Part shown: positions 17,633 through 62,684 of the stretch, piece after piece | Layout: every line of letters begins with the position of its first letter | How positions within the stretch are numbered: position 1 is the first letter of the stretch | Assembly: GCA_951406725.2 (NCBI GenBank) | Contig: OX597818.1 | Span: 82,398,001 to 82,462,000, forward strand | Length of the DNA stretch: 64,000 nucleotides | Origin: Octopus vulgaris | Taxonomy: Eukaryota | Direction: 5' to 3' | Translations under genes and position numbers: made by a program | Notes under the pieces: model-generated | Databases searched by the model: none | Seen by the model: only the letters and a program-made list of their open reading frames with translations | What the model was told of the DNA's origin: nothing

Positions 17633-19330
17633 GCATTTGGGCTAGTCTGACAACGTAAAAGGTTTCCCTGAACGGTAGGTGTTATTCTTGAAAACAATGA
17701 TGAAAAGTGCTGCTATAGTTCAATATAGTTGAAAAGTTTTCATGCGAGCATTTTGTCTTGTCTGCATTTTAGTGGATTTGTTGCCGTTTTCCCCTGGTTT
17801 GAGCGGGAGAGCGTGTGTTATTATGCAGTCGTATTCCGACATAGTGTCCTATGAGGATGAATTACTGAGATGCGATGATAGCATCGACAAGGTGATGAAA
17901 AGAAAACGTTTTGCTGCAGTGACTGATAATCCGAGACAGGAGGTACAAATAAGTAAGGAAGATTTGGAGAAATTCAAAGGCTTAATAAAAAGGGAAACGC
18001 ATGAAATTGTTGTGACCTCGCTACAGGAAGTAAGTCATAGAGTGGAAAGAGAAACAATAGTGTATAAAACATTTGATTTGGAAAAGAAAAGGGTAGAGAT
18101 TGTATCAGAGGAAAACATAGAAAACTGTCTTAAAGACATATGTAGTGATATTACACACGTTATCAGAGGAAGAATGTACACCAAGGTGGAGGTGCGCTTT
18201 AAAGCAGAAGAAATGGCCAAGTGTTATTCTATGGCCTCCAGAAATACGACAGAGATAGTGCTCCTCCCAACTTACCTTGGGAGACGTGCTTTCAGGCCAA
18301 GAGTGGCTGAGATACCACCGGAAGTGGAAGCTGGCTGGATTATGGCAGCTATTATAATGGGGTTGGAGGATAAAATTCCCATCCTCCAAATGATCAAAGA
18401 TGCAACGCAGCTGGCAAGGGAAAGAGATTGAAATGATCATTTAGACCTCCACAAAAGTGCTAAGTGCTAGAGAATATAGTTAACACCATTTGGATCGGCC
18501 AAGACAGAAAATTTAGCGTGTTAGTGGAGGGCAGGAAACCGTGATGTTTCAAGTGTGGTCAGAAAGGCCAGATTAGAGAAGACTGCCCTCCACTACCATC
18601 AGTAATACCACTATTTGGCCCCGGCGAAAAAGGAAAAGAAAATGTAGAGAAATAAGAGACAGAGAATAGCGAGTGGTTGATGGTGATAGGAGAAAAACGA
18701 AGAAAGAGGAAAATTTCACCACTTAAGGGCACCAGTCCACGCCATTCCTCCGCTCCATTCCTTCGAGTCTCCGACTTACCTAGTCCTCTACTGCAGACAC
18801 CAATCTCCTCACTCCACCCGCCACTATTTCGGACCTTGCCCCCGCAGTAACACATGCAAACAAGACATTTTATCAAATCTCCCATCACCCACCCATAAAG
18901 AAAAAGACACTAACCTTGACGATCGATTCGAGAAATAGAAAACTGGTAGTAGAAATTAAAAAATTAAAGTGTGAAACGTGTGCTGGTGGATGAAAGTGAT
19001 TTCAAAATGCTAAAACAAAAATTCGGGCCAGATATTGCGGATCTATACAGAGAGGTGTGCATGGATGCATTGCTTCCTGAAGTGGAGTACAACGACATCT
19101 TGGAGTATGTGGTTTGATTGATTTTTAAAAAGTATTTGACTTTGGAACATTGTAAGCATTTAAAGTTTCAATGCGACTTCTGGGAATGGGGCTCGAATGA
19201 TCGTCATTCCATCTTTTCATTTATACATATTTTCATTTTTCATTCGATTTTACTCCCCTCCCCTCATCCATGTTTGTATGTCCTGTACTGTCCCATCTGT
19301 GTTTTGACCCTAGTAATTAATTAGAAATAA
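17633..19330 (+). mobile_element. ORF1-only (HAL1-like, L1/Tx1-related) non-autonomous retroelement with 12-bp TSD
   Basis: AGTTCGTGCTGG direct repeat at 17621-17632 and 19331-19342; 229-aa ORF, then a frameshifted zinc knuckle; AATAAA at the 3' junction; no RT found. Confidence 0.8.
17742..18431 (+). pseudogene. Gag-like ORF1 protein, continuing after frameshift/stops into a CCHC zinc knuckle at 18545-18586
   Basis: Non-low-complexity 229-aa ORF; downstream VLVEGRKP*CFKCGQKGQIREDCP = CX2CX4(H>Q)X4C, typical of L1/Tx1 ORF1. Confidence 0.7.
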
Positions 19331-29322: not shown

Positions 29323-30601
29323 CGAGGGGCGTTCAATAAGTAATGCCCCTGACCCACTTCCCATAGCAGTAGAGCAACGAAACTTGGCACAGTTATTAGT
29401 CTTTTTCTACATAGAAACCGCCCAGAGTTATGCATTTCTCCCATCGTTTGATGCAGCTATGGAGACCGTTTTTGTAGAAGACCCCAGCTTGGTCCTCCAA
29501 CCACGACTTGACTTCAGAAATCAAGGCTGGGAGACGCTTTCCTTTCAAAAACAACTTCATGGCTGGGAAGAGGTGAAAATCAGAGGGTGCAAGGTCAAGA
29601 GAGTAGGGGGTATGGGGGAGGAGCTCATAGCCGCACGCCTGTGCTTCTGATCTGGCGGCACACGAGTTGTGGACCGGAGCGTTGTCCTGCAGGAGGAGGA
29701 TGTCTTTGCTGATCTTGCCCGGCCTCTTGATTTTGATAGCTTCTCTTAATTTCCTCAAAAGTGAAGCATAATAGGCTCCTGTAATTGTGGTACCCTTTGA
29801 CAGGAAATCTGTCATCACTATTCCGTCCTGGTCCCAGAAGACTGTGAGCATGACCTTGCCAGTAGAGGGCTGCACCCTTGCCTTCTTTGGAGGAGGTGAG
29901 TCACGGTGCTTCCACTGCATTGACTGGGCTTTGGTCTCTGGATCATAGTGATGGACCCAGGTTTCATCCCGTGTAATCAGTCTTTTGAACAATTTTGACT
30001 CATCTTCTTGGCACATCTCCAAATTCATCCTCGAGCACTCGACACGTTCTTGCTTCTGGAAAGGTTTGAGCAACCTGGGAATCCATCTGGCAGACACCTT
30101 TTGCATATGCAAATGGTCATGAATGATAGTTTCCACAGACCCGGCACTAATCTTGACCTCATGGGCTATTTAGCGAATAGTTATGCGTCGATCTTCCAAA
30201 ATGGCAGCATCAACTTGACGGACATATGCCTCATCAATGGCAGAAGGGGGCGACCAGATCTGGGAGCTGTTTCCACAGAGTTCCAACCATGTTTGAATTC
30301 ATGATGCCAGCATTGTACAAGGTCATATGATGGGGCATCATCACCATAAGTTACTTTCATTTCATCAAAAGTCTCCCGTGGTGTGCGTCCTTTCAAATAC
30401 AAAAACCGGATCACTGCTCGACACTCAACAGGCTCCATTTCACACTTGACTCAGTTCAAACACCTGTAAATCAGAAACCACAATTAGTTCAGAGCTGTAA
30501 TTTGCCAGTTAATCTATAGAGATATAAATAATTGCACATGATTTCAGCTAGATCAAACAATTGCAAGTGGGTCAGGGACATTACTTATTGAACGTCCCTC
30601 G
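29323..30601 (-). mobile_element. Full-length mariner (DD34D, irritans-like) with TA TSD
   Basis: TIRs cgaggggcgttcaataagtaatgcccctgacccactt and aagtgggtcagggacattacttattgaacgtccctcg, each flanked by TA. Confidence 0.97.
29396..30438 (-). pseudogene. mariner transposase with frameshift (ORFs 30181..30438 and 29396..30136)
   Basis: WIPRLL, TRDETWVHHYDPETK, LLQDNAPVH, YSLDLAPSDFHLF; 34 residues between the second and third catalytic Asp. Confidence 0.95.
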
Positions 30602-45327: not shown

Positions 45328-45386
45328 TTAGCCACACAGGGCTGCACACAGATTTGTTCTATCTGTGTGCAGCCCTGTGTGGCTAA
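45328..45386. repeat. Perfect 26-bp inverted repeat with 7-nt loop
   Basis: ttagccacacagggctgcacacagat-ttgttct-atctgtgtgcagccctgtgtggctaa. Confidence 0.95.
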
Positions 45387-45396
45387 TAAAGAAACA

Positions 45397-45473
<77 letters not shown>

Positions 45474-45698
45474 GTCCTTCTATTTCTCCATCTATCTATT
45501 ATACATATGTATATGCATATATATATATATATATATATGCATATATAATATAAAATAAATATAAGAGAGTGGTCACTATATGGCTCACTCTAGCACCAGT
45601 TAATCCAAAAGGTTTCAACCACAAAAATACATGTTTCCCATGAAAGTCAGTACGATTGTTAGCTCACACGGACAGGGCAAATAAAAAATAACAAAATA

Positions 45699-45794
45699 CA
45701 GATTATTTTGGGACAATTGTTTCGCTATTAATGAATTAAATGTAATTTTACTTACAATAAAATCCACTTGTAGCTCTTCAGCCAAAACTATCTG
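45699..45794 (-). ncRNA. Type I hammerhead ribozyme, array copy 1
   Basis: Reverse complement of the motif at 47479-47574. Confidence 0.9.
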
Positions 45795-46232
45795 GATGAA
45801 ATCCACTCAATCACACGCCAGATTTTACCATAACGATAAATACGCGTGTGGTTCAATTGATTACATCCGACGTTATAATTCAAATGCCCCAACTAACAGC
45901 GCGCCAAACTTTCACGGAAAACAAATACAGCATTTAGAAATAAATGCAGCATAATTATAATTAATTAATAAGGGTGAGAGAATTAGATACTAATTTAATA
46001 GTATATCTATTCTACACCAAGTGGCCTAGTGCTCCGAGAAACCTGGATTATTATAATATTTTATAATATATTATAATATTTTTACAAAATAAATATAAGA
46101 GAGTGGTCACTATATGGCTCACTCTAGCACCAGTTAATCCAAAAGGTTTCAACCACAAAAATACATGTTTCCCATGAAAGTCAGTACGATTGTTAGCTCA
46201 CACGGACAGGGCAAATAAAAAATAACAAAATA

Positions 46233-46328
46233 CAGATTATTTTGGGACAATTGTTTCGCTATTAATGAATTAAATGTAATTTTACTTACAATAAAATCCA
46301 CTTGTAGCTCTTCAGCCAAAACTATCTG
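46233..46328 (-). ncRNA. Type I hammerhead ribozyme, array copy 2
   Basis: Same sequence as copy 1, +534 bp. Confidence 0.9.
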
Positions 46329-46766
46329 GATGAAATCCACTCAATCACACGCCAGATTTTACCATAACGATAAATACGCGTGTGGTTCAATTGATTACAT
46401 CCGACGTTATAATTCAAATGCCCCAACTAACAGCGCGCCAAACTTTCACGGAAAACAAATACAGCATTTAGAAATAAATGCAGCATAATTATAATTAATT
46501 AATAAGGGTGAGAGAATTAGATACTAATTTAATAGTATATCTATTCTACACCAAGTGGCCTAGTGCTCCGAGAAACCTGGATTATTATAATATTTTATAA
46601 TATATTATAATATTTTTACAAAATAAATATAAGAGAGTGGTCACTATATGGCTCACTCTAGCACCAGTTAATCCAAAAGGTTTCAACCACAAAAATACAT
46701 GTTTCCCATGAAAGTCAGTACGATTGTTAGCTCACACGGACAGGGCAAATAAAAAATAACAAAATA

Positions 46767-46862
46767 CAGATTATTTTGGGACAATTGTTTCGCTATTAAT
46801 GAATTAAATGTAATTTTACTTACAATAAAATCCACTTGTAGCTCTTCAGCCAAAACTATCTG
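46767..46862 (-). ncRNA. Type I hammerhead ribozyme, array copy 3
   Basis: Same sequence as copy 1, +1068 bp. Confidence 0.9.
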
Positions 46863-47478
46863 GATGAAATCCACTCAATCACACGCCAGATTTTACCATA
46901 ACGATAAATACGCGTGTGGTTCAATTGATTACATCCGACGTTATAATTCAAATGCCCCAACTAACAGCGCGCCAAACTTTCACGGAAAACAAATACAGCA
47001 TTTAGAAATAAATGCAAAACAATTGTCCCAAAATAATCTGTATTTTGTTATTTTTTATTTGCCCTGTCCGTGTGAGCTAACAATCGTACTGACTTTCATG
47101 GGAAACATGTATTTTTGTGGTTGAAACCTTTTGGATTAACTGGTGCTAGAGTGAGCCATATAGTGACCACTCTCTTATATTTATTTTGTAAAAATATTAT
47201 AATATATTATAAAATATTATAATAATCCAGGTTTCTCGGAGCACTAGGCCACTTGGTGTAGAATAGATATACTATTAAATTAGTATCTAATTCTCTCACC
47301 CTTATTAATTAATTATAATTATGCTGCATTTATTTCTAAATGCTGTATTTGTTTTCCGTGAAAGTTTGGCGCGCTGTTAGTTGGGGCATTTGAATTATAA
47401 CGTCGGATGTAATCAATTGAACCACACGCGTATTTATCGTTATGGTAAAATCTGGCGTGTGATTGAGTGGATTTCATC

Positions 47479-47574
47479 CAGATAGTTTTGGCTGAAGAGC
47501 TACAAGTGGATTTTATTGTAAGTAAAATTACATTTAATTCATTAATAGCGAAACAATTGTCCCAAAATAATCTG
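47479..47574 (+). ncRNA. Type I hammerhead ribozyme, array copy 4
   Basis: cagatagttttgg-CTGAAGA-gcta..agtggatt..tgtaa gtaaaa ttaca..aattcatt..tagc-GAAAC-aatt-GTC^ccaaaataatctg. Canonical core; 13-position helix I (one mismatch, one GU); extended helix II; palindromic minimal helix III; predicted cleavage after C47561. Confidence 0.92.
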
Positions 47575-48012
47575 TATTTTGTTATTTTTTATTTGCCCTG
47601 TCCGTGTGAGCTAACAATCGTACTGACTTTCATGGGAAACATGTATTTTTGTGGTTGAAACCTTTTGGATTAACTGGTGCTAGAGTGAGCCATATAGTGA
47701 CCACTCTCTTATATTTATTTTGTAAAAATATTATAATATATTATAAAATATTATAATAATCCAGGTTTCTCGGAGCACTAGGCCACTTGGTGTAGAATAG
47801 ATATACTATTAAATTAGTATCTAATTCTCTCACCCTTATTAATTAATTATAATTATGCTGCATTTATTTCTAAATGCTGTATTTGTTTTCCGTGAAAGTT
47901 TGGCGCGCTGTTAGTTGGGGCATTTGAATTATAACGTCGGATGTAATCAATTGAACCACACGCGTATTTATCGTTATGGTAAAATCTGGCGTGTGATTGA
48001 GTGGATTTCATC

Positions 48013-48108
48013 CAGATAGTTTTGGCTGAAGAGCTACAAGTGGATTTTATTGTAAGTAAAATTACATTTAATTCATTAATAGCGAAACAATTGTCCCAAA
48101 ATAATCTG
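48013..48108 (+). ncRNA. Type I hammerhead ribozyme, array copy 5
   Basis: Same sequence as copy 4, +534 bp; predicted cleavage after C48095. Confidence 0.92.
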
Positions 48109-48387
48109 TATTTTGTTATTTTTTATTTGCCCTGTCCGTGTGAGCTAACAATCGTACTGACTTTCATGGGAAACATGTATTTTTGTGGTTGAAACCTTTT
48201 GGATTAACTGGTGCTAGAGTGAGCCATATAGTGACCACTCTCTTATATTTATTTTGTAAAAATATTATAATATATTATAAAATATTATAATAATCCAGGT
48301 TTCTCGGAGCACTAGGCCACTTGGTGTAGAATAGATATACTATTAAATTAGTATCTAATTCTCTCACCCTTATTAATTAATTATATA

Positions 48388-48449
<62 letters not shown>

Positions 48450-48450
<1 letters not shown>

Positions 48451-48746
48451 TAGCAGTATCGCCCGGCGTTGCTCGGGTTTGCAAGGGAAAAAACTATATA
48501 AACATTTTTAGAGAGTTACTTCCCTTATATAATAGCGAAAAAATGCATTAAAATGGAAAAAATGATGGTAATTTTTTTTTTAAATCGTAGACTCATCGTA
48601 GACGCGCGCTAATGCCCAGAAGGGCTCGATATGAATCCCGGCTATAAGATATCCAGTTTTGGTTAAACTGCACCGCCAAATGTGGGAGTAGTTAGGAATC
48701 TAAATCGTAGGAGACAGACACACATATTCACTTTTATATATAAAGA
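48450..48746 (-). mobile_element. Short non-autonomous Helitron (297 bp)
   Basis: Minus strand starts TCtttatatataaaag and ends with hairpin cccgagcaacgccgggc + gatactg + CTAG; inserted between A and T. Confidence 0.9.
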
Positions 48747-48786
48747 TATTGTTGTATTTCGGAATGGTCCTTTTGCCAGTTTAGCC

Positions 48787-61452: not shown

Positions 61453-62664
61453 CTACATACGTACATACATATGTACATACATACAAACATACATACATAC
61501 ATACGTACGAGGGGCGTTCAATAAGTAATGCCCCTGACCCACTTCCCATATCAGCAGAGCAACGGAACTTGGCACAGTTATTGGTCTTTTTCTACATATT
61601 GGTCTTTTTCTCAGAGTTACGCATTTCTCCCATTTGATCCAGCTCTGGAGACCGTTTTTGTAAAAGACCCCAGCTTGGTCCTCCATCCACGACGTGACTT
61701 TAGAAATCAAGGCTGCATCATCTGGGAAATGCTTTCCTTTCAAAAACAACTTCATGGCTGGGAAGAGGTGAAAATCACAGGGTGCAAGGTCAGGAGAGTA
61801 GGGGGGGAGTTCATAGCCGCACGCCTGTGCTTCTGATCTGGCGACACGCGAGTTGTGGACCGGAGTGTTGTCCTGCAGGAGGAGGATGCCTTCGCTGATC
61901 TTGCTCCGCCTCTTGATTTTGATAGCTTCTCTTAATTTCCTCAAAAGTGAAGCATAATAGGCTCCTGTAATTGTGGTACCCTTTGCCAGGAAATCTGTCA
62001 TCACTACTCCGTCCTGGTCCCAGAAGACTGTGAGCATGACCTTGCCAGCAGAGGGCTGCACCCTTGCCTCCTTTGGAGGAGGTGAGTCACGGTGCTTCCA
62101 CTGCATTGACTGGGCTTTGGTCTCTGGATCATAGTGATGGACCCAGGTTTCATCCTGTGTAATAAGTCTTTTGAAAAAGTTTGACTCATCTTGGTACGTC
62201 TCCAAATTCATCCTCGAGCACTCGACGCGTTCTTGCTTCTGGAAAGGTGTGAGGAACCTGGGAATCCATCTGGCAGACACCTTTTGCATATGCAAATGGT
62301 CATGAATGATAGTTTCCACTGACCCGGTACTAATCTTGACCTCATGGGCTATTTGGTGAATAGTTATGCGTCGAGCTTCCAAAATGGCAGCCTCAACTTG
62401 ACGGACAGATACCTCATCAATGGCAGAAGGGGGTCGACCAGATCTGGGAGCTGTTTCCACAGAGTTCCAACCATGTTTGAATTCATGATGCCAGCGTTTT
62501 ACAAGGTCATATGATGGGGCATCATCACCATAAGTTACTTTCATTTCATCAAAAGTCTCCCATGGTGTGCGTCCTTTCAAATACAAAAACCGGATCACTG
62601 CTCGACACTCAACAGGCTCCAAAATTTCAACTAGATCAAACACCTGGAAGTGGGTCAGAGGCAT
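61453..62664 (-). CDS. 403-aa open mariner transposase ORF, probably defective (native ATG lost, DD31D spacing, frameshifted C-terminus)
   Basis: ORF track; TQDETWVHHYDPETK, LLQDNTPVH, PYSPDLAPCDFHLF. Confidence 0.7.
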   Translation of the reverse strand: MPLTHFQVFDLVEILEPVECRAVIRFLYLKGRTPWETFDEMKVTYGDDAPSYDLVKRWHHEFKHGWNSVETAPRSGRPPSAIDEVSVRQVEAAILEARRITIHQIAHEVKISTGSVETIIHDHLHMQKVSARWIPRFLTPFQKQERVECSRMNLETYQDESNFFKRLITQDETWVHHYDPETKAQSMQWKHRDSPPPKEARVQPSAGKVMLTVFWDQDGVVMTDFLAKGTTITGAYYASLLRKLREAIKIKRRSKISEGILLLQDNTPVHNSRVARSEAQACGYELPPYSPDLAPCDFHLFPAMKLFLKGKHFPDDAALISKVTSWMEDQAGVFYKNGLQSWIKWEKCVTLRKRPICRKRPITVPSSVALLIWEVGQGHYLLNAPRTYVCMYVCMYVHMYVRM

Positions 62665-62684
62665 TACTTATTGAACGTCCCTCG
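61508..62684 (-). mobile_element. mariner (same family as 29323-30601) with 5'UTR deletion, inserted in (TACA)n with TA TSD
   Basis: Both TIRs present and flanked by TA; close match to the 29.3-kb copy. Confidence 0.97.

Follow-up and report, generated by a model that had tools for sequence, protein, structure and literature searches.

A non-coding hammerhead retrozyme inserted as two divergent arms in TA microsatellites of Octopus vulgaris, and a candidate Penelope-like helper element

How a short repeat that encodes no protein comes to be written into a genome is the question raised by an array at 45552..48385 of a 64,000-nucleotide stretch of Octopus vulgaris DNA (assembly GCA_951406725.2, contig OX597818.1, positions 82,398,001 to 82,462,000 of the forward strand; hereafter the window, with positions counted from its first letter). 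The array consists of a 534-bp unit carrying a hammerhead ribozyme motif. A first-pass annotation, made from the letters of the window, had described it as about 5.3 identical head-to-tail copies of a young retrozyme-type element. The identity of the copies is exact: there are no mismatches at a lag of 534 within either arm, the four full units match at 100%, and all unit copies of both arms have the same sequence. The head-to-tail arrangement was not found. The array is not a single tandem but two divergent arms joined 5′ to 5′, with 2.74 units on the minus and 2.56 units on the plus strand (Table 1). By its genomic features the element is a non-LTR (long terminal repeat) retrozyme, which is a known class, and its mobilisation by a Penelope-like element is, on the evidence given below, highly likely. 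The best overall explanation, which we consider probable, is a non-coding hammerhead retrozyme in a TA microsatellite, written in trans by a Hydra-clade Penelope-like enzyme from one RNA.

The unit (numbered from the base after the GUC triplet, 47562 = 1) has a GC content of 32%. Its longest stop-free frames are 63 aa in sense and 89 aa in antisense; the former had been noted as the only, spurious, open reading frame (ORF), while the latter had been missed. The longest ATG-started ORFs are 19 and 52 aa, and the unit therefore reads as non-coding, as in retrozymes. The array is flanked by a 16-bp target duplication, which exceeds 4 bp as do those of retrozymes; this duplication is self-complementary, so that its orientation is unreadable at the window locus. 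The 130-nt tail that is present at one end of the array contains a hairpin ahead of that end and contributes the 3′ strand to a long-range helix that covaries.

Five complete type I hammerheads are the sole matches of our own hammerhead descriptor in the window. They lie in consecutive tandem units, three on the minus and two on the plus strand (retrozymes carry at least two), and the complete motif claimed for each unit was thus present, though not on the same strand throughout. The consensus elements (CUGAAGA core, GAAAC, GUC triplet), the long helix II, which occupies a 51-nt region, and the palindromic helix III ACAAUUGU are as previously described. In helix I, given as 13 positions, 12 are paired, one of them as G-U, and one is an A-A mismatch. 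The hammerhead fold with helices I and II as drawn has a z score of −4.1, which was reached by 0 of 200 shuffled sequences. The predicted circle of the unit is strongly folded (z = −6.0; antisense similar, −5.5) and retains both helices. The homodimer is predicted to form a double hammerhead via an 8-bp palindrome, at −44.0 compared with 2 × −17.7 kcal/mol. Helices I and II covary across subfamilies. In 23 variants taken from 27 clusters, with four truncated or junction cases omitted, 14 of 29 pairs are changed on both sides and 89% of cells pair; the covariation score is 0.395, compared with 0.218 ± 0.012 for shuffled and at most 0.122 for slid alignments. The first helix II pair is unpaired in 16 of the 23 variants, and the cleavage triplet is variable in old subfamilies. 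Across 67 loci the free core position N7 varies in 17, while the 11 fixed core positions are changed in one of 737 calls.

The whole genome (2.8 Gb, 227 contigs) was searched for relatives of the unit. Of 1,134 candidates, the 40 that were scored gave 228 matches, and the 150 listed have 96–100% identity. Hammerhead cores with the same helix II base number 2,225 (818 + 1,407; reversed-pattern control, 0), and a further 279 have other helix II bases (control, 0). Exact end junctions into TA amount to 785 for one end of the element (end B, below) and 397 for the other (end A). The window array is one of approximately 800 or more young, scattered copies, in line with the young, non-coding element that had been proposed. 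Subfamilies extend from ~95% down to ~70% identity or patchy similarity; those read are non-coding, and their frame and unit lengths vary. Arrays reach 12.75 units of the short, dispersed, low-GC repeat, with no LTR structure, as in retrozymes. In L204, L210, and L059, other Penelope-like elements have copies of the same lineage nested in their internal or terminal TA runs.

The insertions share a footprint, which was characterized in the 40 loci most similar to the window unit (the closest loci). Arms end 3′ at two clusters, A (unit positions 153–160, 34 arms) and B (284–290, 29 arms), and the sequence past these ends is always AT-rich and almost always (TA)n. A two-armed inverted layout with differing joints is present in 26 of the 40 loci. 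Twenty-three of these combine an A with a B end, and in L031 the A that accompanies the B is damaged. In L052 and L064 one arm stops at another position, near phase 233 and phase 95. Genuine AA or BB pairs are absent from the two-armed loci, the single scripted 'AA' row being L052 misfiled, and 4 of the 14 one-armed loci have a few bases of the complementary end on the opposite side. The genome-wide end lists agree: all 23 pairs of neighbours within 12 kb are A + B and divergent, in a listed part that comprises 46 of 397 A and 100 of 785 B ends (contig 1 together with the initial 101 Mb of contig 2), and a few of the 23 overlap the closest loci. Arm lengths range from 0.1 to 13 units, most joints overlap by 0–5 nt, and the arms of a joint have unlike 5′ phases. 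In three more loci a direct target duplication can be read (L035, L049, and L061; 9–10 bases), the other 22 of the 26 being unreadable or unseen. In 10 subfamily sequences a conserved stem, with C-U/C-U/C-A-U after it, precedes each of the two ends by ~14–17 nt, and the A site lies within a long-range helix that covaries (11 of 36 pairs changed on both sides). This footprint is the Penelope 'tail' signature: an inverted 5′-truncated copy, a tail at one end, and an AT-rich target. Together with the candidate helper described below, it gives genomic support to the earlier suggestion of mobilisation in trans by a Penelope-like element.

Two readings would deprive the footprint of this meaning, namely that the unit is merely the terminal repeat of an autonomous Penelope-like element or that the inversion is an assembly fold-back, and we regard both as scarcely credible. 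Such terminal repeats carry the same kind of hammerhead and tail (PMC4209133, PMC8557442). In the octopus array, however, the units abut directly. No reverse transcriptase (RT) or GIY-YIG ORF, as an autonomous element would have, is present in the unit or continuous with the arms in the loci examined, and nearby matches are separate insertions; the genome-wide copy search proposed in the first-pass annotation gave a high copy number, with no linkage to such frames in those loci. As for the assembly, the window joint is not bridged by any listed contig of four public runs, and the three other arm-to-arm joints that are bridged in one run have a short side of only 24–28 letters. A fold-back of the assembly is nevertheless unlikely because the arms are asymmetric, the flanks are unique, and 26 of the 40 loci share the layout with differing joints. 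A biological fold-back has also been considered for rotifer Penelope elements, in which inversion by self-priming on an antisense template was modelled on head-to-head repeats with palindromes at the joint (PMC3846280). It is very unlikely here, where the joints are asymmetric, the 5′ phases differ with overlaps mostly of 0–5 nt, and the strict A + B pairing and an A>G lean on the hammerhead strand (below) fit a sense template primed twice.

The sequences of the arms bear on the number of template molecules. Among 34 loci with at least 100 shared sites, the opposite arms have the same majority sequence in 21, compared with 4.4 expected for draws from different loci; in the remaining 13 they differ at one or two sites. 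Judging from these haplotypes, both arms were likely copied from one RNA molecule. A single-unit insertion followed by local satellite expansion through unequal crossover, put forward for retrozyme arrays in a preprint (10.64898/2026.07.22.740005), could account for variants in a subset of copies. We consider it highly improbable for this family, in which both arms are multimeric, haplotypes are common to opposite orientations, ends and target duplications are crisp, and very young loci already reach up to 10–13 units.

The form of that RNA can be narrowed from the arm ends and the variants. The 5′ ends are evenly spread over the unit (2 of 70 within 15 nt of the cut site, compared with 3.9 expected; Kolmogorov–Smirnov p = 0.18). 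Cleaved linear monomers are unlikely as the template because the 5′ ends are not enriched at the cut site. Cut-site junctions within the arms are intact in 154 of 155 cases, young arms reach 10 and 12.75 units, and locus-private variants are present in all of 10/10 or 6/6 copies. These features suggest that the template is probably a monomer circle of 534 nt. An alternative retains the same enzyme and the two start sites but takes the template to be an uncleaved linear multimer from a tandem source locus, with the hammerhead as a passenger. It accounts equally for intact cut sites and identical arms, aperiodic variants in some copies could mirror a mixed source array, and unprocessed RNA serves the anole Penelope protein as its main substrate (PMC11167929). 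A single-unit step is, however, needed at some point because fixed 3′ ends together with 5′ loss would shrink linear-multimer arrays, leaving daughters only shorter, yet young arms attain 10 and 12.75 units; the private variants found in every copy require such a step as well. In addition, the two arms of L033 do not show a common order of copies at offsets of 0 or 1, and the hammerhead helices are maintained by compensatory change. The linear multimer is therefore unlikely, and we retain the circle as the probable template.

The private variants lean toward A>G on the hammerhead strand. In the 40 closest loci, 5 of 6 all-copy private variants are A>G, compared with 5 of 48 single-copy changes (p = 0.0004). 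In 59 loci the proportion is 10 of 25; leaving out the 14 variant rows of L168, which is a separate subfamily, it is 5 of 11 compared with 8 of 103 single-copy changes (p = 0.003). This lean fits adenosine-to-inosine (A-to-I) editing of the hammerhead-strand RNA before copying, although with few events (five). At L033, L063, L163, and L068, locus-private variants recur in several copies aperiodically, in both arms in L033 and L068. In public sequencing runs, 19 of 20 listed rows hold at least half of the unit's words, under five organism labels and from seven studies, with the kinds of run guessed or unknown and none of them listed as RNA. The four runs, whose kind is guessed to be RNA, have contigs that span the unit in full as well as the unit-to-unit joint; tandem DNA would give the same. 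Eighteen differences are listed in these contigs, and six of them (5 A>G, 1 T>C) are absent from 67 genomic loci. These six are only a weak hint, since other alleles or species could give the same.

The candidate helper, designated P0001, is a 6.3-kb element with an ORF of ~840 aa, which is 97–99.8% alike across eight copies. A looser hammerhead pattern with the same helix III yielded 2,001 short hammerheads genome-wide (control, 19), and P0001 is among the families that it brought up. The translation of the P0001 ORF contains DKT, YRDD, CxCX5C, CxxC, and CxH motifs. The element thereby agrees with the description of the Hydra clade of C-terminal-endonuclease Penelope-like elements in section 11 of PMC8557442: DKT, a CxCX5C linker, CxxC plus CxH, a canonical hammerhead, and a (TA)n target. 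It also carries RIKWK, which may correspond to the N-terminal RWK motif of the clade. P0001 shares with the 534-bp repeat the helix III palindrome, the TA target, and the A/B rule, its inverted copies being A + B in 10 of 10, with a tail of ~88 nt. The end-A set of the repeat scores best, among the 6.3 kb, at end A of P0001 (13.6; background −9.3 ± 4.9), whereas the best score of the same set in a Neptune-like control is 4.5. Both end motifs are found a single time in the unit and a single time in P0001, at the matching end and in the same order, and the Neptune-like family has neither. From these motifs, a helper in the Hydra lineage appears likely; that it is the P0001 family itself has somewhat less than an even chance. 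A Hydra-type element at L225:2436-8746, 6.3 kb in length, has ~3.5 kb of non-coding sequence past the ORF and an asparagine-rich linker between RT and endonuclease; N-rich inserts are known from rotifer Penelope elements (PMC3846280).

Other candidate helpers were set aside. A young family with 781-aa RT + GIY-YIG proteins, found among 148 GIY-YIG matches, has two ORFs, no similarity to the unit, and neither end motif, and our own descriptor found no hammerhead in it, although the TA target is shared. This Penelope-like family, Neptune-like in type (L113:2318-6018 and 15 similar loci), encodes proteins of 479 aa and 781 aa (the RT-GIY-YIG), lies in (TA)n, and has a tail of ~40 nt. Hammerhead variants that looked like solo helper ends proved to be older non-coding subfamilies, with ~70–80% identity or patchy alignment. 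No alignable coding parent was present among the 30 examined of 2,319 long-helix-II hammerheads.

On these grounds, a sequence of steps may be proposed, some of which are observed as footprint. By analogy with known retrozymes, tandem loci would be transcribed, hammerheads paired via the palindromic helix III would cut at GUC, and the monomers would be circularised by a host ligase. The release of 534-nt monomers had been anticipated for the window array, where a single transcript could yield at most two from the minus arm or one from the plus arm. The end motifs suggest that the helper protein binds two analogous RNA sites, each a stem followed by CUUAU and an AU run, with their ends at unit 160 (A) and 290 (B). 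Insertions lie in (TA)n, have an A end on one side and a B end on the other, and carry a direct duplication where one is readable. Each DNA 3′ end would prime reverse transcription at one site and run round the template for 0.1 to 13 units, and the two 5′-truncated copies meet at their 5′ ends, overlapping slightly or not at all. In agreement with this scheme, two reverse-transcription start sites define the tail in the anole system, and the protein nicks and extends both target strands in vitro (PMC11167929). A more specific model is possible, and we put it forward tentatively. A dimer of the Hydra-clade protein would hold a single circular ribozyme RNA by two conserved stem-CUUAU pads, separated by 130 nt, and carry out rolling-circle reverse transcription from both target strands at once. 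Each event would give two divergent multimers, and A-to-I edits carried by a single RNA, perhaps together with recurrent misreading of its modified bases, would become fixed in the germ line. The common helix III could in addition couple the cleavage of parasite and helper RNA; in folding prediction, a repeat–P0001 heterodimer fell short of the complete double hammerhead. Genome-wide, the same helix III palindrome occurs in more than 6,000 hammerheads belonging to many families, and mixed-family dimers are possible in principle.

Several points weigh against this explanation. Cleavage, ligation, the circle, and reverse transcription are predictions from sequence and folding. In the in vitro system, the main substrate was the uncleaved RNA and hammerhead mutants were still inserted (PMC11167929), and 8 of 9 retrozyme dimers failed to cleave in the preprint cited above. 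The Rfam scan proposed in the first-pass annotation gave no match to the hammerhead, neither at the gathering threshold nor with E values up to 10 allowed; its long helix II and its helix III of 2 bp are likely to lie outside the range of the models. The core conservation is partly circular for loci retrieved via core patterns. The A>G evidence comprises only five events, and of the five in the 40 closest loci two have the usual base of other subfamilies. In 10 of 59 loci a variant is present in several but not all copies without a period, which one unmodified circle would not explain; a base misread on each pass owing to modification, a mixed multimer, gene conversion, or polishing errors could do so. 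Concerning the helper, the end patterns were written post hoc with both sequences already seen, the end-B profile scan did not single out end B of P0001, and the unit and P0001 have no alignable similarity beyond AT-rich noise. An ATAGTGG motif also stands ahead of the TA junctions of another, Neptune-looking family, and the P0001 ORF has no Pfam or PDB match, with only E = 0.1 to the Neptune-like ORF.

The element resembles the metazoan non-LTR retrozymes described in PMC7229834 and in the preprint 10.64898/2026.07.22.740005. Common features are a non-coding, low-GC tandem unit with a type I hammerhead in each full unit, dispersed copies, a target duplication exceeding 4 bp, the absence of LTRs, co-occurring Penelope-like elements, and a strongly folded predicted circle. 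The unit had been called long for its class; at 534 nt, and with its long helix II, it exceeds the 170–400 nt of PMC7229834 but falls inside the 51–972 bp of the preprint. Circles have been shown for the retrozymes of PMC7229834, while the 534-nt circle here is predicted from the sequence. Penelope-like insertions (PMC8557442, PMC3846280, PMC11167929) are likewise described with partial tandems and an inverted copy placed head to head, a tail confined to one end, an AT-rich target, a hammerhead that lies upstream of the ends, and two start sites that define the tail. The octopus repeat differs from them in lacking an ORF, in a tail of 130 nt compared with 30–40 bp (~88 nt in P0001), in the multimeric state of both arms, and in the nearly strict one-sidedness of the tail. 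P0001 carries the motifs, canonical hammerhead, and (TA)n targets of the Hydra clade, but is 6.3 kb long compared with less than 3 kb in PMC8557442, and the repeat is not alignable to it. The minimal Penelope hammerheads of PMC4209133 likewise have a short helix III, a palindromic loop, and predicted dimer action. The present hammerhead, with its long helix I (12/13 paired) and 51-nt interrupted helix II stem, is not of the minimal form.

Retrozymes have already been argued to be non-autonomous Penelope derivatives (10.64898/2026.07.22.740005). The word 'inverted' does not occur in the main text of PMC7229834, and no two-armed layout, fixed ends, or named helper clade was found in the available portions of that article or of the preprint. 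In the literature searched, we likewise met no description of a retrozyme from a cephalopod, none of retrozymes inserted as two arms whose fixed ends are complementary, and none that matches a Hydra helper by its end motifs; the supplements of PMC7229834, PMC8557442, and 10.64898/2026.07.22.740005 may bear on this point.

Table 1 Array features in the 64,000-nt window.
Feature	Position	Strand	Description
Left arm	45552..47016	−	1,465 nt, 2.74 identical units; begins (5′) at phase 298 and stops at 45552, the fixed 3′ end A (phase 160)
Right arm	47017..48385	+	1,369 nt, 2.56 identical units; begins (5′) at phase 524 and stops at 48385, the fixed 3′ end B (phase 290)
5′-to-5′ arm joint	47016..47017		Asymmetric, without gap, non-palindromic
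One unit, predicted cleavage site to cleavage site	47562..48095	+	534 nt; equals the majority sequence of the 40 closest loci
130-nt tail, unit 161–290	48256..48385	+	Present at the B end, absent at the A end
Target duplication, left copy	45532..45547		16 bp in (TA)n; four more AT bases between this copy and end A
Target duplication, right copy	48382..48397		16 bp; first four bases common to end B
Type I hammerhead	47479..47574	+	Core at 47492, predicted cut after 47561
Type I hammerhead	48013..48108	+	Core at 48026, predicted cut after 48095
Type I hammerhead	46767..46862	−	Core at 46849
Type I hammerhead	46233..46328	−	Core at 46315
Type I hammerhead	45699..45794	−	Core at 45781

Other features were observed in the window. 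Directly to the right of the array, at 48449-48747 (minus strand), lies an element of ~293 bp with a 5′ TC, a 3′ hairpin, and CTAG, which sits between A and T and resembles a non-autonomous Helitron. Within (TATC)n at 45328-45397, 160 bp to the left of the array, two perfectly inverted 26-bp copies flank a 7-nt spacer, with ~11 further bases on one side; this could represent a very small Penelope-type insertion, head to head, at a different target. Mariner/Tc1-type transposase frames occur at 29396-30169 and 61453-62667 (minus strand; Pfam Transposase_1 and HTH_48), and a 232-aa open frame at 17733-18431 (plus strand) has no Pfam match.

As a catalogue entry alone, the 534-bp repeat is one more retrozyme family. 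The mobilising enzyme of animal retrozymes and the circle as template are still proposals (PMC7229834, Discussion), the preprint asks for a mechanism, and the origin of inverted ends with a one-sided tail in Penelope elements is described as open (PMC8557442). To these questions the family brings exact predictions: reverse transcription starting at unit 160 on one target strand and at 290 on the other, within (TA)n; P0001 as the young helper; and multimeric products from a circular template. The footprint makes the mechanism of both retrozymes and Penelope elements directly testable on one small RNA. Two-strand rolling copying of a small RNA circle into DNA, if true, would be of interest as a writing mechanism.

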